64,000 nucleotides of DNA from Vulcanimicrobiota bacterium. GTDB taxonomy: Bacteria; Vulcanimicrobiota; Vulcanimicrobiia; Eremiobacterales; Eremiobacteraceae. The position numbers were made by a program, and so were the translations under genes. The stretch lies in NCBI GenBank assembly GCA_963805945.1, contig CAWDVP010000008.1, positions 1 to 64,000 of the forward strand, in the 5' to 3' direction. Shown piece after piece: positions 1 through 13,176 of this stretch. The notes below the pieces were generated by a model, which was not told the origin of the DNA, did no database searches, and was given only the letters and a program-made list of their open reading frames with translations. Each line of letters opens with the position of its first letter. The first letter of the stretch is position 1.

Positions 1-1996
1 TGATCGAGCTGGCGAGATTCTGCTGCAGGTTGAAGTCCAGCGTGAGGTCGCTGTTGGGACTGAAGAGATGCTTGGCCTCGAAGTTATAGCTGGTGAGGCC
101 CGGCGTAGAGCGAACCCGCCGAAGGGGTTGTTGAAGCCGGTGGTCGCGGTCATGAAGTCGAAGCCGATACGAATTCGAACCCGAGACCTGCGTGAACATC
201 GCGTGGACCGCGCCGCCGCTCTCGCTCGGCCCGACGGTGGCGCCGAACACGGGGCCGTTCGTGGCGATGTGCGCGATGCTCGCGCGCAGGCGTGCGTCGT
301 CCCTTGCAAGCTCTGCTCGAAGAGCGTGAAGTTCGAGTCGCCTGAGGAATCGTTGACGTAGCCGAGGTTGAAACGCAGCGTCCCCGCGCGGTTGAGCAGC
401 AGGCTCGCGTGGCCGCCGGTCGTCTCGGCGTGCACGTTTGCGCCGCCGTACTCGTATTGCACCATGACGACCTGCGGGTTGAACCGATCGTCGTATGGCA
501 GCGGGATATTGATGAAGCGCATGAGGCCGGACGTGTAGTCGAGCGTGTAGTCGACGTTGCGCACGAGCGCATCTGGCTGAGCACCGCGCCGGTGCGCTTG
601 TCGAGCACGACCAGTGTGACGACGTCCGAGCCGACGACGATATCGGAATGCAGGATCTGACCCGCGATCGAGAGCCCGGTCGGGTTGAACTGCTGGCGCG
701 CGTACGGCGAAATCGTTGTTCGCGGTGAATCCCATGATGCGGGTCCGGCTCGTGCGTTCGAGCTTGGCGCCGTCGACGAGCAGATGGTAGCCGCCGTCGC
801 TGTCGGGCGAGCCATGGTCGGGCCGGAACTCGCCCCATACGAAGCTGCTCTGGTCGCGGTCGAGGCGCGCGTAGAGATGATCGCGCGAGAGCGCGTCGTC
901 GTACTGGTAGCTCGCGTCGCCGTAGGTCTGGAACGGACGGTCGTACGGGTCCTCGACATAGGGTCCGAGCAGGTTCTGCTGCAGCAGGTTCGCCGTGTCG
1001 TAGGCGACCGTCGCGAGGGTGTCGTTGTTGATGACGCCGGTGCCGAAGACGGCGATGCGTCCCTTGCGGGTCTGCTGGCCGTCGGGGACATCTGGCGGGC
1101 ATGCCGGCGAAACCGGGCACCGCGCCCGCGCCCGCGGTCCCCAGTCCGGTGACGAACGGCTTGCGCAGGTTCGGGTCGATATAGAAGCGCTCGATGTAGA
1201 CGACGTCGGCCGCCGTGACCTGCAGGACGGCCTCGCCGGGCAGCAGGCCCTGGACGAGATGGATCTGATTGAGACCGCCCGCCGCCACCGGCAGTTCCAC
1301 CGCCGACGAGGTGTGGTATTGCACCGGCTGGCCTTGCGACGTCGCGCTCGCGAGAAGAAAGCGCAGATCGCCCGCGACGACGCTCACCTTGATGATCGGC
1401 CCCGGGCATCGCCGGATTGTTCCAGCGGTCCGTCGCGGTGACGCTCAGCGTGTTCATCGTGACGCCGCCGTCCGCATGGAGTGGCCGGTCGAGATTAAAG
1501 ACGAAATGCGCCGGCTTGCCGGGGCCGAAGATCGTGTAGCGCGCCGTCAGGTCCGCGGATATCACCGTGCACCGAGCGGCGTGACCTCGACCGTGTTGGG
1601 ACCCGCGTCGAGCACGACGCCGTAGTACTCATAACGGGTCTCGCCGGTCTTCTTGTTCACCGAGCGCATGCCGATCTGTTTCGCCGAGATGACCTTGCCG
1701 TTGACGCGCAGCTCGACGCCCGCGCCGGAGACCGTCGAGACGAGGATCTTCGTGGCGATGCCGGTCGAGGCGGCGCCTGCGGCCGGCGAGAGCAGCGTCG
1801 CGCTCAGGTTCGAGGTCGCGCTATAGGTGAGGCTGCTCAGGTCGGCGCCGATCGGCGGCGCGGCGGTCGGCTGCGCGGTGGCCGGAGGCGCGCGGCCTGC
1901 GGCGCGGCAAGCGCCGGTGCGCCGAACAGCAGCGCTGCCAGCAACGCGACGACGTATGCGAGCGGTCGAATTCATTCGACCGACGCGCGCGCTCAC
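1..1996 (-). CDS. Large outer-membrane protein of DUF11 clusters (putative beta-barrel/usher-like); runs off the window's left edge; several frameshifts
   Basis: Pieces stitched across frames. GTG start overlaps the upstream stop. Signal-like 'YVVALLAALLFGAPALAA'. Ig-like 'VELRVNGKVI...YEYYGVVLDAGPNTVEV'. Then 'DPYDRPFQTYGDASYQYDDALSRDHLYARLDRDQSSFVWGEF' and 'NVDYTLDYTSGLMRF...VVMVQYEY', motifs I recall from large OM proteins next to TIGR01451 genes. Confidence 0.7.
1959..1982 (+). repeat. REP family B (24 nt) inside the 5' end of the OM protein gene
   Basis: CGAG-CGGTCGAA-TTCA-TTCGACCG; translated GRMNSTA. Confidence 0.8.
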
Positions 1997-4149
1997 TTCG
2001 ACGGCTCCAGCGCGAAGTTGATATCCTGCAGCAAGCCGGTGTCCAGCACGCCGTGGATCAGGCGCAGCATGCTGTGCGGGCTGTCGTAGTTGAGCGGGTT
2101 CGGATAGGGCTGCACGCCGGCGGGCAGCGTCGTCGTGTCGAGCCTGATGACGTGCATGCCCGGCCGCGCCGATGGGAACGAATACCGCCCGTAGCTATCG
2201 GTGATGACGTATTGTCCGTCTTCCAGATAGAGACGGACGCCCGAGACGCCCTTGTCGCCCGGCACGAAGAGCCCGCTGCCGGAGAAGTCGACGAACACGC
2301 GCCCCGTGATCGGGATGGTGAACGAGAACGCGCCACCGCCCAAGATCGCGAACGACGCCTGCGCCTGCGCGCTCAGCGGAGCGCCCTGCGCGTACGCGGT
2401 GAGCGCCGCGACGTTGACTTGTGTCGTGTTGATCTGCGCTTCCGGCAGCACGACCGCGGCGTACACTATCGTGTGGGTGACGCCCGGCGGCAAGGTGCCG
2501 AACGTCCAGGTGAGCGTGCGCCCGTTCACCTGCGGCTCGACCGCCACGCCGTCGACACGCGCCGTGCCGGGTCCGTACGCGACGCCCGGCGGCAGCGTGT
2601 CCACGAGCACCGCGTTGGTGAGCGTCGCGAGCGACGAATTGGTGAACGCGACCGCGAAGACGAGCCGGTCGCCGGTCTGCACCGCCTCGCGATCCACCAC
2701 CTTGGAGATGGTGATCGGGTTGGCGGTGAACATCGGGATGTTGTCGAGCAGGTTGAAGACGTTGGAAAGCGTGACGGGTCCGGCCGTCAGCGTGAAGCCG
2801 CCTGGCGCCGCGAGCAGCTCACCGTCGAGCGCGGTCAAGGTCGCGCTGTAGAGGGTGCCGCTCGGATCCGCCTTGAGCACGATGTCGATGCGGCGGTTGT
2901 TGTAGCTGGGCGCGGTGACCGTGAGGATGTAATGCGCGTTGCCGCCCGCGCCGCCGAATTGGCCAGGCCCGAAAGCGAACGAGAACAGCCCCGACGCCAA
3001 TGTGGTGTACGGGTTGACGTTGGAGTTGTTCGGCGCCACGCCGACGCCGGTGAGGCTGAACGGCGTGATGCTGGGCGGCTGCGTCAGCGTCATGACGGCG
3101 CCGCCGATGGTGTGCGTGCCGCCGCCGTAGCCGTCGAAGACGACGTTGCCCGTGCCGACGAAGACGCTCGCCGGCGACGAGGTGTACGGGCCGAGACCGG
3201 TCGCGGTCACGGTCGCCGTGTTCACGTATGTCGTGCCGAGCGTCGCGTTCGCGTCGACGACAGCATCAAAGGTGATGGTGATCGTCTGCAGGGCGTTGAC
3301 GGTCGGGATCGTCACCGTGAGCGTCTGTCCGACGAGCGTCGCCTGGCCGCCGGCCGGCACGCCGTTGATGAGCACGGATGCAAGCGAAGGATGCAGTCCG
3401 GTCGGCACGACGTCGGTGATGACGACGTTGTTGGCCGCCAGCCCGCCCGAATTGGTGAACGCGATCGAGAAGTTGACGGTGCCGTTCGGCGCGGCTTGCG
3501 TCGACGGCTCGTTGTTCACCAGCTTCTTGATCGAGCTGATGTTCGGGCCGATCACCGCGAGCGCCCAGCGCTGCCCGGTGTCCGATTGCAGCCCGTTGGC
3601 GGTGCCCGTCACCGTCGTCTGCGCTTTGATATTGATGGACCACGCCGTGCCGACGGTGATGGCCGCGGTGTTCACCGTGACGTCCACGAACATCGTGCCG
3701 CCCGGCACCACGCTCGGAGAGACGGTGGAACCGATCGTCACGGGGATGGGCGGGCCGGCCGGCGGCACGACGAAGTTGATCGCGGTGATCGTGCCCGCGC
3801 TCGTCGTGGCCGACTGGATCGTGTATGCGTCGGTGAGGTTGCTCGTGTTGGTGATGATGAAGCGCCGCGTCACCGGCGTGCCGACCGCGTACGAATCGAG
3901 CGCCGGATTCACCGCCGCCTCTTTGGGCGCGACCGTCAGCGACGCGACCGCCTGCACCTGCACGAGCACCGTGTTGGAGTCGGTGGCGTAGGTGGTGCCG
4001 GCGCCGTCCGCGTAGGTCGCGGACGCCGTGTTGCTGATGATCGTGCCGGCGGGCGTCGCGGCAAGGGTAGCGGCAAGCGCCGGCTGGGCCGCCAAAGCGA
4101 CCAAGCCGACGCTGGCCGCCGCCAACGCCGCGATGAACCAACGGAGCAC
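1993..4149 (-). CDS. Secreted DUF11 (TIGR01451) repeat protein with C-terminal SdrD-B-like domain, 718 aa
   Basis: Intact ORF with signal peptide. N-terminal TPAGTIISNTASATY. Two complete DUF11 domains (IKK..ITDVVP..VNTATV; ISK..LVDTLP..VNVAAL). C-terminal GRVFVDFSGSG..GDKGVSGVRLYLEDG..ITDSYGRYSF. Confidence 0.85.
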   Translation of the reverse strand: MLRWFIAALAAASVGLVALAAQPALAATLAATPAGTIISNTASATYADGAGTTYATDSNTVLVQVQAVASLTVAPKEAAVNPALDSYAVGTPVTRRFIITNTSNLTDAYTIQSATTSAGTITAINFVVPPAGPPIPVTIGSTVSPSVVPGGTMFVDVTVNTAAITVGTAWSINIKAQTTVTGTANGLQSDTGQRWALAVIGPNISSIKKLVNNEPSTQAAPNGTVNFSIAFTNSGGLAANNVVITDVVPTGLHPSLASVLINGVPAGGQATLVGQTLTVTIPTVNALQTITITFDAVVDANATLGTTYVNTATVTATGLGPYTSSPASVFVGTGNVVFDGYGGGTHTIGGAVMTLTQPPSITPFSLTGVGVAPNNSNVNPYTTLASGLFSFAFGPGQFGGAGGNAHYILTVTAPSYNNRRIDIVLKADPSGTLYSATLTALDGELLAAPGGFTLTAGPVTLSNVFNLLDNIPMFTANPITISKVVDREAVQTGDRLVFAVAFTNSSLATLTNAVLVDTLPPGVAYGPGTARVDGVAVEPQVNGRTLTWTFGTLPPGVTHTIVYAAVVLPEAQINTTQVNVAALTAYAQGAPLSAQAQASFAILGGGAFSFTIPITGRVFVDFSGSGLFVPGDKGVSGVRLYLEDGQYVITDSYGRYSFPSARPGMHVIRLDTTTLPAGVQPYPNPLNYDSPHSMLRLIHGVLDTGLLQDINFALEPSK

Positions 4150-4174
4150 CGTCAGGCTCCCCTCACCTTCCTCG

Positions 4175-6484
4175 TTACTTCACAGTAACGGCGAAGGTGA
4201 TGACTCCCTGATTCGTGCCGGCGACGCCGCTCGGCACGAGTTGGAACGCCGCGCCGCCGACCGTCGCGGTGAAGCTCGTCGAAGCCGCCGCGTTGCCGGT
4301 GTACGTGGTGCCGCCGGTGGTGTCGGTCGCCGGCGCGTTCAGTCCGTTGGTGAAGGTGGCCCAGTTGTTCGCGCCCGCCGCGCCGTTCTCGGTGATGACG
4401 AGCGTTCCCGCCGCCGTCAGGAGCTGCGCAGAGAGCGGTTCCGTGCCGGTGCCGCCTCCGACCATGATGTTCCGGTAGTCGACCGTGTAGGTGAGGATCG
4501 CACCCGGGCATGCGAACTGAGTCGCCGGCAACGGCGGCTGCGTGAACACACCGCAGGTGTTGTTGGTGATGGTGATGCCCTTGGTGAGGGCGATGAAGCT
4601 CGAGTAGAGCTCGTTGTGCGTCGTGTTCGTGCACGTCGGGCACGCGCCGCCGCCGATGCTCGCCGCGAGGATGTTGCCGTCGTAGCGTTTCAGCGACTGC
4701 GTCGGATTCGGCGAACTGTACACCGCCCAGTAGCACAGCGTCGCGCCGGATGTTACCGCGACGTTGTTGGCGACCGAAGTGGCGCCCGACCCTGCTCCGC
4801 CCAAGGCGGTGCCGCTCGGCGCGGTGCACGTGCCGCTGTCCTGGAACAGCTGGACGGTGAACCCGACCGGTGCGGTCGCGGTGATGGTGTACGTGTCGGC
4901 GACGTTGCCCGCGTTCATCACCTGGTTCGGCACGTTGATGCCGGACACGACGGCGGTGAAGTTGTTGCCGTTCGGCGTGCCCGGCACCGTGCCGCTGTTG
5001 ATGATGGTGAAGGCGGACTGCGTGAAGCTCACCGCGGTGAAGTCGTTGTTGTTATTCACCGCGACGACGCCGTCGTAGCTGCCGGTCGCGCCCGGCAGGC
5101 CCTTCGGCCCGTTGAGCACGGAGTAGTTCGACGGCATCGCCGAGCAGACGCTCTGCGAGGCGCCGCTGGGCGCGGCCAGCGTCGTCGAGTTGTTGATGGC
5201 GTTGTTGATCGCGGTGACCGCGGCAGGCGTGCCGTCGCTGATCAGCGTCACGATCGTCGGACCGATGACCTGCGGCTGCGTCACGAGGTAGTTGGCGTTG
5301 CCGCCGATCACCCCGTTGGCGATGTTGCTGATCGCGCAGGCGTTGCCTGAGCCCGCACCCGTCGGGCCGTTGACCGCGAAGGTCAACGTCACCGCTGCGG
5401 CAGGCACGTTACCCGCGGACGACCCGGCGTGCGCGTTGAGCGCCACCGCACCGCCCGAGATGTAGACGCCGATCCACAGCGCGCCGGCCGAACTCGTCGA
5501 CCAGCCGCTGGCGCCGCTTGCCACGTTCGAGTACACGATCGTGGCGCTCGCGGTGACCGGGAAGCCGTTCGCGGCGCTCGTCGCCACCGACGGCACGCCG
5601 TTGAGCGTGAGCGGCACCGCGGCGAACGTCGGGATCTTGTCGGCGATGAGCACGCCGGGGCTCGTGAAGGGCGCGCCTGCGCCAAGACCCTGCACGCTCG
5701 TGAGCATGCGGGCCGGCGAAGCGCCGCCGTTGTTACCGGCGACCGTATAGGTCACGACCGGCGCCGCCGACGTGCCGCTGACCACCGCTGACTTCTGCAG
5801 GTCGAGCCGCGCGTCGGCGATGATCGAGTCGGTGTAGCTGTTGGAGACGTTCGGCGAGGTCGTGTCGACCAATCCGGCCGGGTTCGGCTGATCGGCGGCC
5901 TTGTAGAGGATGTTGGCGGTGAGCGTCGTCGTGATCGTGCCTGGCGTCGCCGCACCGGTGATGCAGTAGTTGATGGTGATGGTCGCATAGCCCGCCGGCG
6001 CGATGAGCGCCGAGGCCGCGAGATTCGCCTGCAGCTGCGCGAACGTCAAACCGCTCGTCGTCGCGCCGCCGTTGTACGAGATCGAGTAACTCGTGGTGGC
6101 GACGCTGGCGGAGTCACTCCCGCCGAATACCGGTGCGCTCGGCAATTGGAAGCGTCCAAGGCCGTTGCCGGTATTGGTGAGCGTGTAGACGTCAGCGAGG
6201 CACGAGTTCGGCACGCCCGTGCCGGTGCCGGCCGCCGCGCCGTTATTCGTGGTCACGGTGAGCGAGGGCGCGTTCTGCACCTCGACGACGACCGTGTTGG
6301 ATTGCGTCGTATAGCTGACGCCGTTGGTGTCGGTATAGGTCGCCGACGCGGTGTTCGAGATCAGCGTGCCGGCGGCTGTCGCGGCGGCTGCGGGATGGCC
6401 CGTCAGCACGATCGCGCAACAGACGAACGCCGCGGCAAGCAACTCCGCCGGGCGGATGACGTACGTGAACCAAGATCGGTTCAT
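4175..6484 (-). CDS. Secreted DUF11/Ig-like repeat protein, putative major fibre subunit (start 6484 or 6517)
   Basis: Intact ORF with AAGGA SD before ATG 6484 and a signal peptide. N-terminal TAAGTLISNTASATY. Internal DUF11 (LQK..IADKIP..ISNIA). C-terminal truncated DUF11 ending ITFAVTVK. Confidence 0.85.
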   Translation of the reverse strand: MNRSWFTYVIRPAELLAAAFVCCAIVLTGHPAAAATAAGTLISNTASATYTDTNGVSYTTQSNTVVVEVQNAPSLTVTTNNGAAAGTGTGVPNSCLADVYTLTNTGNGLGRFQLPSAPVFGGSDSASVATTSYSISYNGGATTSGLTFAQLQANLAASALIAPAGYATITINYCITGAATPGTITTTLTANILYKAADQPNPAGLVDTTSPNVSNSYTDSIIADARLDLQKSAVVSGTSAAPVVTYTVAGNNGGASPARMLTSVQGLGAGAPFTSPGVLIADKIPTFAAVPLTLNGVPSVATSAANGFPVTASATIVYSNVASGASGWSTSSAGALWIGVYISGGAVALNAHAGSSAGNVPAAAVTLTFAVNGPTGAGSGNACAISNIANGVIGGNANYLVTQPQVIGPTIVTLISDGTPAAVTAINNAINNSTTLAAPSGASQSVCSAMPSNYSVLNGPKGLPGATGSYDGVVAVNNNNDFTAVSFTQSAFTIINSGTVPGTPNGNNFTAVVSGINVPNQVMNAGNVADTYTITATAPVGFTVQLFQDSGTCTAPSGTALGGAGSGATSVANNVAVTSGATLCYWAVYSSPNPTQSLKRYDGNILAASIGGGACPTCTNTTHNELYSSFIALTKGITITNNTCGVFTQPPLPATQFACPGAILTYTVDYRNIMVGGGTGTEPLSAQLLTAAGTLVITENGAAGANNWATFTNGLNAPATDTTGGTTYTGNAAASTSFTATVGGAAFQLVPSGVAGTNQGVITFAVTVK

Positions 6485-6513
6485 TGTGATGTTCCTTATC
6501 CTTTCGCGTGCGA

Positions 6514-7005
6514 TCATTTCACCCGGACCTCATAAAGAAACCGGACGCTCCCCTTCGGCGCCAACGGCTTTTCGGCGATCCACCGGATGTTGGTATATGA
6601 AGACGGGTCCGCTGGTTTCGTCACCGGGCCCGTCGAGGTCTGAACCGTCACCACGGGTTTGGACGACCACGTCTTGCCGCCGTCCAGCGAGAACTCCACG
6701 TTCCCTGCCGTGGTGCTTGCCGACCCCGCGATATACGCGGTGCCTGCGGGTATCTTATCCGACGGCGTGAAGTGCAGCGCCGGATCGGAACCTTTGTTGG
6801 TGCCGACGATCGTCCAGCGGACGACTTCGCCGGCCTTGAGCTTGACTGCGGGATCCAGCGGGATGAGCTTCTCGCCACCCCCGCTGACCTTGACGACCGT
6901 CACCCCGCTGAGATGGAGGCTGACATCCGGTTTCGCATATGCGGTCAGCGTGGTCAGTATCAGTGCCGCTGCGCAGGCGAATATCCCGGCGCTCACTAGG
7001 CGCAT
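6514..7005 (-). CDS. Small secreted single-DUF11-domain protein, about 163 aa
   Basis: AAGGA SD before ATG 7005. Signal peptide MRLVSAGIFACAAALILTTLTAYA. AGEVVRWTIVGTNKG..SDKIPAGTAYIAGSA..EFSLDGGKTW..TNIRW..LAPKGSVRFLYEVRVK. Confidence 0.85.
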   Translation of the reverse strand: MRLVSAGIFACAAALILTTLTAYAKPDVSLHLSGVTVVKVSGGGEKLIPLDPAVKLKAGEVVRWTIVGTNKGSDPALHFTPSDKIPAGTAYIAGSASTTAGNVEFSLDGGKTWSSKPVVTVQTSTGPVTKPADPSSYTNIRWIAEKPLAPKGSVRFLYEVRVK

Positions 7006-7180
7006 AGAAATTTCCTTCTTCTTATTAAGCAGGCCACCGAGGTGGCCTAGAAGTGTGACTCGGGCGGCTCCCGTTTTGTAAGCCCTGCCCCTTGTATTCA
7101 TATCGTCAAAAGTATGACCGCCAGCACGGCGAACTGCGATGTTTGTTGGCTTTACGCGACTTTTGTGGACATGGTCCGCT

Positions 7181-7205
7181 AGGGTCCCTGGGGACGCCGT
7201 CAGAA
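7181..7205 (+). promoter_or_regulatory. Candidate alternative-sigma promoter AGGG-N18-GAA upstream of thrS
   Basis: The same bipartite motif recurs upstream of purM, pepA, purB, the 43538/43633 divergent pair and the ABC operon. Confidence 0.4.
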
Positions 7206-7218
7206 GGCGGGGACGGAT

Positions 7219-8958
7219 ATGGAAAATTCCAGCCCCAAAGGTGACCTCGGTCACATGCGCCATACGGCCGCTCACCTGCTCGCCCATGCGGTGGTCGATC
7301 TCTATGGCGATGACGTGAAGCTGGCGATAGGTCCCGCCATCGAGAACGGCTTCTACTACGATTTCTCAAGGGCACGCCGTTCGTGCCTGAGGATCTGCCG
7401 CGCATCGAAACACGGATGCGCGAGCTCATCAAAGCGGATGTCGCGATGACCGGCCGCCCGATCACCAGGCCCGAAGCGGAGGCCTACTACCGAAAACGCG
7501 AGCAGCCGTTCAAACTCGATATCCTCGCCGGCATTCCCGAGGGCGAACCGCTCTCGATGTACACGATCGGCGATTTCACCGACCTCTGCCGCGGCGGGCA
7601 TCTGGAGCGCAGCGGCGAGATCGGCGCGATCAAGCTGTTGTCGATCGCAGGCGCCTATTGGCGCGGCGACGAGCACAATCCGATGCTGCAGCGCATCTAC
7701 GGCACGGCGTTCCCGTCGCAGGCAGAGCTCGACGAGCATCTTGCGCAGCTCGAAGAGGCGGAGCGAGCGCGATCACCGCCGCCTCGGCAAGGAGCTCGAG
7801 CTCTTCTCCATCGAGGAAGAGGCTGGCCCCGGTCTCATCTTCTGGCATCCCGCGGGCGGGCGCGTGCGCGAGGTCATCGAGGACTTCATCCAAGGCGAGC
7901 TGCGACGAGCGCGGCTACGAGCCGGTGTACACGCCGCACGTGGTGCACGAGGGTCTGTACGAGACCTCGGGCCATCTGCAGTCCTTCGTCGAGAAATGTT
8001 CGGGCCGCTCGAGCTCGACGAGCAGCGCTATCGCGTCAAGCCGATGAACTGCCCCGGGCACATCCTCATCTACAAGTCGCGCCCGCGCTCGTATCGCGAC
8101 CTGCCGCTGCGGCTGGCCGAATTCGGCACCGTATATCGCTACGAGCGCTCCGGCACGCTGCACGGACTGCTGCGCGTCCGCATGATCACGATGGACGACG
8201 CGCATCTCTTCTGCACCCCCGACCAACTGCAAGAGGAGTTCGAGAACACGGTCGACGCGGCGCTGACGGTCCTCAAGGCATTCCGCTTCGACGACTACAA
8301 GATGTTCGTCTCCACCAAGCCCGCGAACGCGCTCGGTGATGACGCCTTGTGGGAACGCGCGACAAAGGCGATCATCGCCGCCTGCGATCACGCCGGTCTG
8401 AAGTACGAGATGGATGAGGGCGGCGGCGCCTTCTACGGCCCGAAGCTCGACATCAAGGTCCGTGACGCCATCGGCCGCGAGTGGCAGCTGTCGACGGTGC
8501 AGGTCGACTTCAACCTGCCCGAGCGCTTCGGGCTCACCTATCGCGGCGCGGACGGCGCGGAGCACCGCCCGGTGATGATCCATCGCGCGCTGTGCGGCTC
8601 GCTCGAGCGCTTCTTCGGCGTGCTCATCGAGCACTACGCCGGCGCGTTCCCCGCGTGGCTCGCGCCGGTGCAAGCGGTGCTCGTGCCCATCTCCGAGGAC
8701 CAGCTCGCGTACGCGGACTCGGTCGCGGCCTCGCTGCGTTCGGCAGGCTTCCGCATCGAGGTGGACACCTCGAACGAACGACTTCAGAAGAAGATCCGCA
8801 ATCAGCAGATGCGCAAGGTGCCCTACATGCTCGTGGTCGGCAAGAGCGAAGTGGCTGATGCCAAGGTCAACGTCCGTTCACGCTCTGGTGAACAGGAGAC
8901 CATGACGGCGGAGGCGTTCGCGGTCAAGCTCGCTGAGGAAGTCCGCACCAAATCCTAG
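7219..8958 (+). CDS. thrS: Threonine--tRNA ligase (short form lacking N-terminal TGS domain); several apparent frameshifts
   Basis: [82 protein letters not shown] and PVMIHRA are spread over three frames. Confidence 0.96.
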
Positions 8959-8959
8959 T

Positions 8960-8985
8960 GTAGGGGCCGATCTTTAGATCGGCTC
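8960..8985 (+). repeat. REP family A (26 nt, GTAG plus palindrome), single copy
   Basis: GTAGG-GGCCGATC-TTTA-GATCGGCT-C between the convergent thrS and adhesin stops. Confidence 0.85.
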
Positions 8986-8987
8986 TT

Positions 8988-11900
8988 CTATTGCACCGTC
9001 ACCGTCAGGAACACGGTGCCCGACGCACCCGGGTTGAGCAAGCCGGTGAACGTCCAAGTGACGATCCCGCCGGACGGCCCCGATGGGGTGCAGGCCGTCA
9101 ACGCCGCGCCCAGCGGTCCGCAAGTGGCGCTCACAAACGTGGTGTTGGGCGGCACCGGATCCGTCACCGCGAAGTTCGTCTCCGGGAACACGCTGGTGTT
9201 GGTATAGGTGATCGTGTAGAGCAGCGTATCCCCAGGGCTTGCGCTGCCGGTGGTCGCGTTCGAGCTGCCGGTGGTCACGTTGCGCACGACCTTGGCCAGC
9301 GACATCGAGACATGGCCGATGGTGATCTTCGCGGACGCCGGCAAGAGATTGGTCAGCCCGCCCGGCGTGACGATGGCGCCGGCAGGTATCGTGTTGGTGA
9401 AGGTACCGAACTGCGTCGGCGTCGCGGTCGTGATGTACACGTAGACGACGCACGAGGCGCTCGCAGGAATCGTGAAGCTCGTGACGTTGAACGACGCGCC
9501 GCCCGGCACGCCGACGATCGTCGCGCCGCAGCCCGGCGGCGCGCCGCCCTGCGGCGGCGGTTGCGTGGTGATGTCCTTGATGACGATGGCGCTCGGCAGC
9601 GTGTCGGTCACCGTCGTGATGGGCTGCGCGACGGCGGACGGATTCTGGAAGGTGAGCGCGACCCAGGTCGTGCCGCTGGGCGGAATCGCCGGCGCTAAGA
9701 ACGCTTTCGTCAGGCCGATGTTCGCCGACGACGTGAGCGTCGCGCTTGCGCTGAACGAGTTCGTCGCGCCCGAGGTCGCGGTGATCGATCCGGCTGGGAT
9801 GGTGTTGGTCAGATTTCCCTCGGTGACCGCGGTGACGTCCACGGCGATCGTGCATGGCTGCAGCGCTCCGCCTGCAGTACGCGAGGGCAACGTGGCGCCG
9901 CTCAGGACCACCTGACCGCTGCCTGCGGTTGCGACCAGCGTTGCGTTCGCGCAGGTCGTGCTGGCGTTGGGGATCGCGGCGACGGTCATGCCGGCTGGCA
10001 ACGTATCGGTGAGCCCCACACCCGTCTCGTTGAAGACGATGCCGCCGGTATAGGCTTGCGCGTTGTTCGAGAGCGTGATCAGCAGATGCGAGGTGCCGGC
10101 GGCGGGGATGGTGTTGGGCGTGAAGGTTTTGTTGACGTTGATCTGCGACGGCGCCACGAACACGACGTTGTTCGCGCCGTTCAACGTCTGGAGATTGTCC
10201 TCGGTGCTCTGGACGGTCATATGGCCGGCGGTGTAGGTGCCGGCGACCGCCGAGATCACGAAGTACGAGATCGTGCACGTGTCTTTGAAGACGAAGTCGG
10301 GCGACGTCGCGGTGTAGGACGTGCCGCCCGCCCCAGGCGTGAACGTGAGCACAGAGCCTTTCGTGCACGTATAGGTGAACTGCGGCGCGGCGGCCAGGAC
10401 CACATTCGTGCCCGCTACGTTGAAGTTGAAGACCGCGACGAGGTTGTGGTCGTCCGTGCCGGCCGTCGATATGATCCGGTCGCTCACCGAGATCGTGCCC
10501 TTGATCGGCGCGACGCCGACCGTGGTCGCGCCGCTGCTCGAGAAGTAGTGGGTGAGGGTCAGCCCGTGGTTGACGGTGAGATTGGCGTTGACGTTGGCGG
10601 CGTTGGTGATGGTCACATTGGCCGAGGTGACCACGGAAAAGCCGCCCGGCGGGATGCTGTTCGTGAGCGTCACCGGTAATGGCGCCGCGACGGTCGGCGT
10701 CACAGGCACGCTGACCGTGCAGGTCCTGGCTCCCGCGGCGATGGTCCCATTCGTCACTGCGATCGACGTGCCGCCGATCGGCGCGATGATCGTCGGTGCG
10801 CCGCAATTGGCGTTCGCCGTCACCGCGGCGGCGACGATCAGACCCGCGGGCAGGTTGTCGGTGATGGTGACGGCGTGCAGCGCCAGTCCGCCCGTCGGAT
10901 TGATGACGTTGATGTTGAGCGTCGAATTGTTGGCGCGCGCCACGCTGGCCGGGCTGAACGCTTTGGTGAACGTCACGGTCGGCGTCGGCGTCGGTCCGAC
11001 GGTGAGCACCGCAGAGGTGTTGCTGTTCGCTTTGAGCCCCTGGTCGTTGGTCACCGTGCTGCCGGTGACGGTGTTCGTCGGCGTCTGCGACGGCGGTGCG
11101 GCAGGCACGAGCACGTCGAACGTGATCTTGCAAGTTGCGCCGTTCACTCCCAAGCTCGGCGCCGCCGGCAAGGTGAGGCCGGAGACGACGACGGTTGACG
11201 TGCCGGCGATCGTGCCCGCCGGTCCGCCGCAGGAGTTGGCGAAGTTCGGGACCGCTGCGAGCAAGAGACCGCCCGGCAACACGTCTGAGAAGCCGAAGTT
11301 GGTCAGGGGGATGAGGTCGCGGTTGATCGCCGAGATGGTGATGGTCACCGTCGCGCCGGGGACCGTCGTCGCCGGCGTGAAGCTCTTGACGATCGTCGGC
11401 GTGATCGGGAAGTAGGTCACGTCGGCGGTGGTGCCCGCGTTGTTCATCACGCCTTGCGCGCTGGTGATCGCCTGCGAGGCCACGGTGAGCCGCTGGCTGC
11501 GCTGTGAATTCGAGAACTGGCCGTTGACGCTCACCGTCACCTGCACCGTGCAGGAGCCATTGGCCGCGATGGTCGCTCCGGTGACGCTGAACGTCGGCGG
11601 GGATACCGCGTTGTTGAAGGTCGCGACGCCGCCGCAGGAATCGGTGACGCTGACGATGTGGAGCGTCGCGCCGCCGACCGGCGACGAGAGCGAACCGGGG
11701 ATGGTGACGTTGGTGATCGGCAGCGCGTTCGGATTGGTCACCGTGACGATGAAGACCGGTGATGCGGTCTCCGGCACCTGGTTTGGCGTGACGGTGATCG
11801 TGACGCCGAGGTTCCCCGGGTTGGTGACTTGGAGCGTCGCGGAGGCGGGCGATGAGTTCGTGCCGGCACTGGTGACGAGCGCGCCTGCCGGAATCGTGTT

Positions 11901-12302
11901 GGTGAAGTTCTGCGCCGAGTTGCCGAACACCGAGACGGTCACCGTGCACGCGCCTGGTGTGAACGCGTCCGGCGCCTGCGGGATGACGCCGCCGTTCAGC
12001 GTGATGCTGTTGGCGGTGGTGTTCACCACGCCCCCGGCGCACGTGGTCGTCGGCGTCACCGTTCCGTCGACCGTGAGGCCGGCAGGCAAGTTGTCCGTCA
12101 TGCTCGTGACGGTGACGCTCGTCGTCGTGTCGTTGTTGAGCAGCGTGATGGTGAGCGTCGAATCGGCGGCGAAATTGACGTTCGACGGATTGAATGCCTT
12201 GTTGATGCCGATCGTTCCGGCGGAACCCGCCGGCGACCACACGAACAGCGCCACCAGTACAGCCAGGGCGCAGCCCAGCGCCACGCGCGAGATCGCACGC
12301 AT
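8988..12302 (-). CDS. Large secreted Ig-like repeat adhesin (7 repeats plus C-terminal truncated DUF11 domain)
   Basis: Intact ORF with signal peptide from ATG 12302. Repeats of K-x-F-x-P..TD-x-LP..C..C..TNTIP. Ends SLAK..PGDTLLYTITYTN..VTDPVP..LNPGASGTVFLTVTVQ. Confidence 0.85.
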   Translation of the reverse strand: MRAISRVALGCALAVLVALFVWSPAGSAGTIGINKAFNPSNVNFAADSTLTITLLNNDTTTSVTVTSMTDNLPAGLTVDGTVTPTTTCAGGVVNTTANSITLNGGVIPQAPDAFTPGACTVTVSVFGNSAQNFTNTIPAGALVTSAGTNSSPASATLQVTNPGNLGVTITVTPNQVPETASPVFIVTVTNPNALPITNVTIPGSLSSPVGGATLHIVSVTDSCGGVATFNNAVSPPTFSVTGATIAANGSCTVQVTVSVNGQFSNSQRSQRLTVASQAITSAQGVMNNAGTTADVTYFPITPTIVKSFTPATTVPGATVTITISAINRDLIPLTNFGFSDVLPGGLLLAAVPNFANSCGGPAGTIAGTSTVVVSGLTLPAAPSLGVNGATCKITFDVLVPAAPPSQTPTNTVTGSTVTNDQGLKANSNTSAVLTVGPTPTPTVTFTKAFSPASVARANNSTLNINVINPTGGLALHAVTITDNLPAGLIVAAAVTANANCGAPTIIAPIGGTSIAVTNGTIAAGARTCTVSVPVTPTVAAPLPVTLTNSIPPGGFSVVTSANVTITNAANVNANLTVNHGLTLTHYFSSSGATTVGVAPIKGTISVSDRIISTAGTDDHNLVAVFNFNVAGTNVVLAAAPQFTYTCTKGSVLTFTPGAGGTSYTATSPDFVFKDTCTISYFVISAVAGTYTAGHMTVQSTEDNLQTLNGANNVVFVAPSQINVNKTFTPNTIPAAGTSHLLITLSNNAQAYTGGIVFNETGVGLTDTLPAGMTVAAIPNASTTCANATLVATAGSGQVVLSGATLPSRTAGGALQPCTIAVDVTAVTEGNLTNTIPAGSITATSGATNSFSASATLTSSANIGLTKAFLAPAIPPSGTTWVALTFQNPSAVAQPITTVTDTLPSAIVIKDITTQPPPQGGAPPGCGATIVGVPGGASFNVTSFTIPASASCVVYVYITTATPTQFGTFTNTIPAGAIVTPGGLTNLLPASAKITIGHVSMSLAKVVRNVTTGSSNATTGSASPGDTLLYTITYTNTSVFPETNFAVTDPVPPNTTFVSATCGPLGAALTACTPSGPSGGIVTWTFTGLLNPGASGTVFLTVTVQ

Positions 12303-12516: not shown

Positions 12517-13176
12517 ATGATGACGAACGATACCGACGGACTTACCTCTTTGACCGACCGCGTCAACGCCTTGGAGCGGGAGAACCGGCGCCTCAAGGGC
12601 GGCGGCGCGATGTTGCTCGCCGTGGTCGTCGCGCTGAGCGCGATGGGCGCAGGTGCTGTGGAGTCGTTGAACGCGCAGAAGTTGACCGTCACGGACACGA
12701 CCGGCTCGGTCACCATCTCGGGCTCGGATATCATCATGAAGAACCCGAACGGCACCGAGCGGCTCTTCCTCGGCCTCAGCGAGAAGGACCATCCGGTGCT
12801 GAACTTCTACGGGCCGGAGGGGAAGAACCGCGTCAGCCTCATCGGTTCCGATCTGCCGTTCCTGCGGTTGCTCGACGCGAAACAAGAGCGGGAATATATG
12901 GGCTTGACGACCGACAATCATCCGGTGCTGCGCCTGTACGCTTCCGACGGCACCGAGCGCGCCTTTCTCGGCGTGAGCACGCAGAACGATCCGAATCTTC
13001 TTATGTATGGCTCGAACGGGAAGCTGCGCGCCGCGCTCACCGCGACCGATCTGCCGTACTTCACCATGTATGACGCCGCCAACACGCCGCGCATCAACAT
13101 CCAAGTGAGCGACAGCAATATCGCCAAGATGTGGCTCGAGGATACCAGCGGAAGTTCGACCTGGCGCGCTCCGTAG
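12517..13176 (+). CDS. Hypothetical protein: short coiled coil, TM helix, then ~22-aa beta repeats
   Basis: GGAGG SD. LTDRVNALERENRRLK, hydrophobic segment, then repeated PVL-x-LY-xxx-G-x-ER-x-x-LG units. Confidence 0.75.
   Translation: MMTNDTDGLTSLTDRVNALERENRRLKGGGAMLLAVVVALSAMGAGAVESLNAQKLTVTDTTGSVTISGSDIIMKNPNGTERLFLGLSEKDHPVLNFYGPEGKNRVSLIGSDLPFLRLLDAKQEREYMGLTTDNHPVLRLYASDGTERAFLGVSTQNDPNLLMYGSNGKLRAALTATDLPYFTMYDAANTPRINIQVSDSNIAKMWLEDTSGSSTWRAP

Follow-up and report, generated by a model that had tools for sequence, protein, structure and literature searches.

A CLIPPER-type domain split between genes points to a probable donor-hairpin fibre anchored at a giant barrel in a diderm bacterium

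We describe a gene cluster at the start of contig CAWDVP010000008.1 from a Vulcanimicrobiota bacterium (assembly GCA_963805945.1), analysed within a window of 64,000 nucleotides (64 kb) that begins where the contig begins. The genome comprises 2.3 Mb and is 81.9% complete, and we take the organism to be a diderm because LpxA and one Omp85 gene are present. On the minus strand the gene order is tip, small, shaft, base and barrel, the last four abutting one another, and thrS lies between tip and small on the plus strand. An earlier note on this DNA had proposed a self-crosslinking fibre whose DUF11 domains are divided between neighbouring proteins. We argue that the proteins of this cluster probably assemble through donor hairpins into a chain, tip-(shaft)n-base, that would be locked by isopeptide bonds and anchored at a giant barrel. 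The genes and the half-domains that concern us are the following, with the source of each assignment and with lengths in amino acids (aa):

8988..12302, minus strand: tip gene, 1104 aa (translation; Pfam)
8991..9314, minus strand: tip acceptor domain with K1004 (codon 9293) and D1048 (codon 9161), matching Pfam DUF11 positions 8-84 of 114, the last two strands with the Asn missing
7219..8958, plus strand: thrS, between the tip gene and the small gene
6514..7005, minus strand: small gene, 163 aa (translation; Pfam)
4175..6484, minus strand: shaft gene, 769 aa (translation; structure model)
6275..6382, minus strand: shaft donor hairpin, residues 35-70, with N44 (codon 6355) (ortholog conservation; profile alignment)
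4178..4603, minus strand: shaft acceptor domain, about residues 628-769, with K635 (codon 4582) and E699 (codon 4390) (ortholog conservation; profile columns)
1993..4149, minus strand: base gene, 718 aa (translation; Pfam)
3952..4059, minus strand: base donor hairpin, residues 31-66, with N40 (codon 4032) (ortholog conservation)
1..1996, minus strand: 5' part of the barrel gene, about 650 of 1060 codons (comparison with same-genus genomes)

The four complete proteins each begin with a hydrophobic stretch, after which no membrane-like segment follows, as seen in a hydropathy scan, which is not a signal-peptide predictor; their leaders end in Ala-rich cleavage sites without Cys. The earlier note had claimed that three secreted proteins stop just before the last two strands of a DUF11 domain and that two begin with the missing strands, and both claims are borne out. 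In fact, the three ends (4175 for shaft, 6514 for small, 8988 for tip) are present on the minus strand and Pfam coverage stops early: the last domain of tip covers positions 8-84 and small covers 12-82, both running to the stop codon, and a complete base domain covers 2-96. The donor stretches (6382-6275 in shaft, 4059-3952 in base) follow directly after the hydrophobic N-terminal leaders. When tested with the PF01345 and PF25564 profiles, tip, small and base score above the gathering scores; shaft has no match in this test, nor any Pfam match anywhere in the protein.

The two kinds of half can be laid onto one domain. We built a profile of the complete domain (135 columns) using base orthologs together with 400 repeats taken from long DUF11 proteins, and acceptor and donor profiles from the C-terminal domains and the N-terminal stretches of the cluster genes. 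In profile-profile comparisons the acceptors correspond to columns 6-95 of the 135 (probability 98.9), the small family to columns 12-95 (98.5) and the donors to columns 99-127 (probability 74, E 2.8e-5). In this alignment the donor Asn falls on the Asn of the domain. Donor and acceptor profiles are therefore adjacent, non-overlapping parts of the complete-domain profile. Lys, Asp and Asn occur together within single internal repeats but not within any of the three terminal domains, which have no Asn strand. As a background we used 129 long hits from a small-protein profile search of representatives, a search swamped by multi-repeat DUF11 proteins; just 7 of these 129 unrelated proteins have a truncated terminal domain. 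The seven are P0057, P0075, P0079, P0108, P0163, P0172 and P0183, and five of them carry Lys and Asp. Judged from these profiles, the split of DUF11 domains is real and far beyond chance. The CLIPPER domain solved by Costa et al. (9IFR) has a Lys715-Asn806 bond beside Asp748, as given in the available text of PMC12617251, and because the halves tile the profile and these bond residues are known, the acceptor carries the Lys and the Asp, and the donor the Asn.

The anatomy of the subunits is consistent with a polar chain. Tip is composed of a leader, seven DUF7933-type immunoglobulin (Ig) repeats and the truncated DUF11 domain. Five of its repeats bear the full Lys/Asp/Asn triad (35/70/135, 306/340/410, 447/482/548, 725/766/833 and 866/900/970), the remaining two have neither the Lys nor the Asn motif, and the last domain has Lys and Asp and no Asn strand; no separate adhesive head was recognised in the protein. 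Its orthologs in three same-genus genomes occupy the same position and are 68-73% identical. Base has a leader, a donor hairpin, two complete DUF11 domains (K209/D246/N310 and K483/D517/N579) and a C-terminal SdrD_B-like module, with no acceptor. Shaft carries both halves: its leader and donor hairpin are followed by three Ig-like domains (about residues 71-224, 226-452 and 451-630), the second with a triad of its own (K231/D282/N387), and by the truncated last domain. This last domain is an insertion-rich variant of the acceptor in which K635 and E699 stand in the same profile columns as K1004 and D1048 of tip, and the shaft donor is identical to the base donor at 24 of 35 residues.

A structure model of shaft made from 25 sequences (predicted local distance difference test, pLDDT, 78.9; predicted template modelling score, pTM, 0.63) shows a hairpin at residues 41-68 (pLDDT 55-64) followed by three Ig-like domains; a strand at the C-terminus closes the last domain. 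The donor is the least confident ordered part of this model, and no fold match of the first domain begins before residue 68. Fold searches with shaft return generic Ig and CnaA-type matches (BcpA, RrgB, SpaD, Z 8-9), the CnaA-type pilin domains being matches of the triad-bearing domain 226-452; these searches bear on the domains before the last, and 9IFR is absent among the matches listed. A sequence search of solved structures with a base domain, the tip end and the barrel found no relative, and searches of clustered-protein atlases returned only DUF11 or unnamed clusters.

Gene sets of this type recur within the phylum and far outside it. Among 151 phylum genomes the small protein is matched in 28, and profiles made from the phylum loci match shaft in 27 and barrel in 34. 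The order small-shaft-base-barrel is found at 24 of the 26 phylum loci examined; of the other two, one is cut off by a contig edge behind shaft and one consists of the small gene only. Of the 26 genomes in which the small protein matches strongly, 25 have shaft, a figure that is partly so by construction. One locus (L038) has two tandem copies of the small and shaft gene pair, followed by a single base and barrel. When plasmids were searched with an intact ortholog of the barrel, the same set of genes turned up in Picosynechococcus NIES-970, Kovacikia, Novosphingobium THN1 and Thermus brockianus, and a small-protein pattern found at least 120 loci outside the phylum, of which we used the 80 with flanks and left out 40 short ones (below 720 bases). 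A companion gene lies within 10 kb at 60 of these 80 loci, a donor-plus-acceptor gene at 55, an SdrD_B-like module at 53 and a barrel at 49. The module and the barrel share one reading frame at 46 loci, 35 of these with a donor in front; base and barrel are separate in cyanobacteria and Thermus, as here. The module was never found in one protein with an acceptor (0 of 80 loci). Named carriers among the annotated loci are Sphingomonadales, Gammaproteobacteria, Geobacter relatives, Gemmatimonadota, cyanobacteria and Thermus. In Thermus brockianus (L062:11866-23204) the cluster directly follows a carotenoid and photolyase operon on the same strand, a lead for expression conditions. The parts list first drawn up for this locus, with a donor-only base, a donor-plus-acceptor shaft, an acceptor-only tip, a small acceptor-shaped protein and a large outer-membrane (OM) barrel, holds both in the phylum and in other diderm phyla.

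These gene sets bear on the idea that shaft closes upon itself, its hairpin completing its own C-terminal domain by circular permutation or in a head-to-tail ring, with the truncated domains of tip and small as stable short folds. Shaft does hold both halves in one chain, the small protein persists alone in some genomes, so that a truncated domain can exist without a donor, and the seven truncated background proteins are of the same tenor. However, base and the fused base-barrel have a donor and never an acceptor at the 80 loci, tips lack a donor and have an acceptor that bears Lys and Asp, and the two halves of shaft lie three domains apart, with the donor placed without confidence in the model. 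We hold such closure to be highly improbable and consider it very likely, on the strength of the profile tiling, that the halves dock in trans.

Conservation of the residues argues for a bond once docking has occurred. We picked the phylum ortholog sets of shaft and base by whole-protein similarity and not by motif; the residue counts omit three of the 26 loci (contig-edge, small-only and frameshifted), and one retained locus has two shafts. N44 is conserved in 24/24 shaft orthologs, K635 in 23/24 and Asp or Glu at position 699 in 24/24, and N40 is present in 23/23 base orthologs. The same truncated domain closes twenty further phylum genes, most of which follow barrel; their N-terminal parts differ (lectin, kelch-like, unknown), and these tip-type acceptors have Lys in 19 of 20 (one unaligned) and Asp or Glu in all 20. 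Outside the phylum, the four plasmid loci included, donor-plus-acceptor proteins have Lys in 89 of 91 (two unaligned) and Asp or Glu in 91 of 91, with no Asn strand behind; of 37 acceptor-only frames from other phyla, which include fragments from frameshifts or shafts that were missed, 31 have Lys. The donor Asn of other phyla is conserved in 88/92 and 37/39, counts made with donor seeds that required Asn and on loci many of which are kin. Thus, the check suggested by the earlier note, whether donor Asn and acceptor Lys are conserved together, comes out positive in the phylum and in other diderm phyla, and the acceptor Asp/Glu is conserved along with them. In the internal domains of the 129 control proteins, Lys is present in 2489 of 2635 domains with the Asn and in 45 of 117 with another residue there; 19 more have no residue in the Asn column, 9 of them with Lys. 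Complete domains without the partner Asn shed the Lys, yet acceptors keep it.

These counts also speak to a fibre without covalent links, in which the hairpin would complete the fold, no bond would join the chains, and Lys, Asp and Asn would be kept for packing or hydrogen bonds. The available text of PMC12617251 does describe DUF11 domains in which the bond is missing. The divergent shaft acceptor has Glu in 18 of 24 orthologs where CLIPPER has Asp, and a second donor Asn, N63, is equally conserved in the phylum (24/24). But Glu can serve as catalyst: in BsaA of Clostridium perfringens, a member of the TasA family, donor Asn35 joins with Lys74 and Glu56 in an 'exchange and lock' supported by mutants, according to the accessible part of bioRxiv 10.1101/2024.11.04.621531. 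Moreover, the second Asn falls to 46/92 in other phyla against the seed-biased 88/92 of the first, and the Lys that is so readily lost without Asn in the controls is retained in acceptors. A bond-free fibre appears quite improbable to us; given docking, a spontaneous isopeptide bond is likely from the residues kept.

The small protein has the outline of an acceptor, a truncated DUF11 domain, with an inserted hairpin. Its first strand has no column with a conserved Lys, and the likely Lys position, for which the register is inferred, is a Leu invariant in 22/22 close homologs. At the catalytic column these 22 homologs have Gly in 16 and Asp in 4, and 77 homologs from other phyla have Asn in 44 and Asp in 17. 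With no conserved Lys and mostly Gly or Asn in place of the catalytic residue, the small protein should not form the bond. A small acceptor-only cap or chaperone had been predicted by the earlier note: the acceptor shape stands and a covalent cap does not. The best fit, to which we give even chances, is a reversible, non-covalent holder that would keep donor hairpins until use, the inverse of a PapD-type chaperone. At 20 of the 80 motif loci (L066, L093, L067 and 17 more) the small gene has no companion within 10 kb. Two solitary small genes or motif matches lie before a helicase gene and one after FtsH.

The barrel gene is broken here into four frame pieces and truncated by the start of the contig; it is intact at three same-genus loci (1057-1071 aa). 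Since thrS is also broken here, over three frames, and the barrel gene is whole in these relatives, assembly indels are the likelier cause of the breaks in both genes, and a barrel pseudogene is less likely. thrS is convergent with tip, an arrangement shared by three same-genus genomes. Divergent from tip, at 12517-13176 on the plus strand, lies a gene for a 219-aa protein with a short coil, a hydrophobic segment and many short beta-type repeats, and with no Pfam match.

Four intact barrel orthologs match no Pfam family. A model of the barrel of a same-genus genome, made from 21 sequences (pLDDT 68.6, pTM 0.49), comprises two Ig-like domains and, apart from an insert of low confidence, 39 strands, which suggests a barrel of roughly 36-40 strands. 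The fold matches listed for it (SlpA, FimD, PapC, LptD, porins) are all generic at high root-mean-square deviation (rmsd), 9-15 for FimD and PapC. SprA, the translocon of type IX secretion, is a 36-strand barrel taking cargo by a C-terminal domain. Like SprA, the predicted cluster barrel is very large, and a conserved C-terminal module is found on the side of its cargo; the SprA profile TIGR04189 weakly hits 13 of the 21 homologs of the barrel (best E 0.0016). Unlike SprA, it stays far below the family cut-off, the 200 bits not being approached, and has about half the length; the barrel chain of SprA itself is absent among the fold matches listed.

Paralogs of the barrel adjoin single-chain DUF11/DUF7933 repeat proteins at L058 (Roseivivax), L059 (Devosia), L184 and L185, and also at L183 and L186. 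At the first four the repeat protein ends in an SdrD_B-like module, and no small, donor or acceptor gene was detected nearby. Such a pair of barrel paralog and repeat protein may form a two-gene display system, possibly with its own secretion route. The single-chain protein of L184 is 32% identical to tip over 1135 columns and 45% identical to the last 223 residues of base. Because it joins tip-like repeats to the C-terminal module of base, tip and base look like the two ends of an ancestral-type single chain that was severed within a CLIPPER domain, shaft being a unit that could be inserted. Such a chain supports both pairing in trans and an anchoring role of the module and the barrel. It also keeps alive the reading that the cluster makes a short modular adhesin: pairing of the halves in trans, perhaps with a lock, would give a fixed chain of base, one or two shafts and tip, produced in pieces for export, rather than a long pilus.

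A fixed chain is favoured by the single-chain adhesins that end in the same module and lie next to barrel paralogs, with no small, shaft or donor genes beside them. The subunits here are large (718-1104 aa), and in other phyla 32 of the 60 loci with a companion gene encode two distinct shafts whose donors differ visibly, which could fix their order. Against this stand the single shaft type of the phylum, which bears both halves and whose donor, so close to that of base, makes self-addition compatible with the sequence, the small shafts (about 330-400 codons) of many relatives, and a dedicated small holder that is kept almost only in split systems. In fact, since the shaft and base donors are near-identical, we see nothing that would stop the addition of shaft to shaft. 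We regard the fixed adhesin as unlikely and lean, with some reserve, towards a fibre of variable length over a fixed three-part chain.

How does this cluster compare with known systems? The complete triad copies inside tip, shaft and base belong to the same family as the CLIPPER/DUF11 (PF01345) and DUF7933 domains of fibrillar adhesins and keep the same Lys-Asp-Asn order. In those adhesins, as far as the available text goes, the bond lies within one chain, whereas the terminal domain here is split between genes; the phrase 'strand complementation' is absent from the main text of PMC12617251. The closest chemistry is that of BsaA, where donor-strand exchange is followed by an autocatalytic intermolecular bond between a donor Asn and an acceptor Lys beside an acidic residue, with no sortase; for our cluster the same is proposed. 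BsaA differs by its TasA fold, its one short donor strand, its SipW peptidase, its Gram-positive envelope and, in the accessible part of the preprint, the lack of a barrel. The cluster proteins match no TasA-type family in Pfam or NCBIfam, and no peptidase gene is seen in the operon. Because the BsaA lock is already published, the novelty of the cluster resides in its domain family, its diderm setting and its barrel, not in its chemistry.

The proposed polarity resembles that of chaperone-usher pili (Fim, Pap), where an N-terminal donor completes the Ig fold of its neighbour, an acceptor-only tip, a repeating shaft and a terminator follow one another, and a periplasmic helper works with an OM barrel (available text of PMC11821415 and PMC9715654). 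Here, in contrast, a hairpin of two strands bearing a reactive Asn is the putative donor, the putative helper has the shape of an acceptor and does not donate a strand, the predicted barrel is far larger and base is often fused to it. The usher family PF00577 has no match in the genome (81.9% complete), and the cluster proteins have no Pfam or NCBIfam match to PapD-like chaperones or fimbrial-family pilins. Like the chain proposed here, the archaeal thread protein Saci_0406 forms head-to-tail donor-strand filaments with isopeptide links and a cap lacking one half, but there the Asn bonds the N-terminal amine of subunit n+2, the fold is another and the archaeal envelope has no outer membrane (available text of PMC9715654). 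Sortase-assembled pili find no counterpart: the earlier note saw no sortase in the window, PF04203 has no match in the 81.9% complete genome, and the cluster proteins carry no hydrophobic C-terminal segment. Type V pili of Bacteroidota arise from lipoprotein precursors through protease processing and use a C-terminal donor strand. The donor of our cluster is N-terminal and its leaders are without Cys.

Tafi (PMC11821415), F-ENA (PMC12357932), Litorilinea hooks (10.1101/2025.08.19.671072) and, from the available part of its source, Elr pili (10.64898/2026.10.17.759780) proved to be other systems, and PMC6329079 and PMC13723633 are false literature matches (DUF1127). In the open text of PubMed Central and bioRxiv, which leaves subscription journals and supplements out of scope, we found no paper that combines DUF11, donor strand and isopeptide and none with TIGR01451; CLIPPER together with pilus returned the Costa paper alone. 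With BsaA-like chemistry and chaperone-usher-like polarity, the cluster falls outside both kinds, and we could find no described kind for it in the open literature. The candidate undescribed system of the earlier note is thus upheld as a system and qualified as to its chemistry, which BsaA already has.

To bring these results together we propose the following sequence of events. Subunits would be exported to the periplasm via their leader peptides, where the donor hairpin of each would dock into the open edge of the last domain of the preceding subunit. Docking would rebuild the Lys-Asp/Glu-Asn triad across two chains, and the isopeptide bond would then form by itself. The polarity would be as in chaperone-usher pili, with the acceptor-only tip first, copies of shaft next and the donor-only base last. 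The SdrD_B-like end of base would stay at the giant barrel, which would both pass and anchor the chain.

Several points weigh against this proposal. The tip gene is parted from the operon by thrS, and shaft, with its four domains and 769 aa, would make a large major pilin. The match of the donor to the domain profile is moderate (probability 74), and Ala replaces the Lys in one shaft ortholog. The cross-phylum donor counts lean to Asn through the seed requirement, and the loci were chosen by motif, many of them kin. The small gene can exist alone, as the loci devoid of fibre genes within 10 kb attest, and it may also serve other purposes. Confidence in the barrel model is middling, and the barrel does not prove polymer growth, because its paralogs serve single-chain adhesins without split domains. 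Finally, binding, bond and fibre all rest on sequence and prediction.

The recognised pili of diderms (chaperone-usher, curli, type IV and type V, as listed in PMC9715654) are not known to be covalently linked. We tentatively envision, with slightly less than even confidence, a widespread pilus class of diderms in which split CLIPPER domains would act as natural tag-and-catcher pairs that weld subunits without an enzyme, while an inverted chaperone with an inert acceptor would shield the donors. The barrel of about 36-40 strands would then represent a new family of translocons, one that displays single-chain DUF11 adhesins as well; it would export a folded chain and, where base and barrel are fused, form the covalent end of the fibre. 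If true, this would add a covalent pilus class for diderms, spread across far-apart lineages, and give a function to a large unannotated barrel family. It would also provide natural, possibly orthogonal peptide-protein ligation pairs with donors of about 36 residues.

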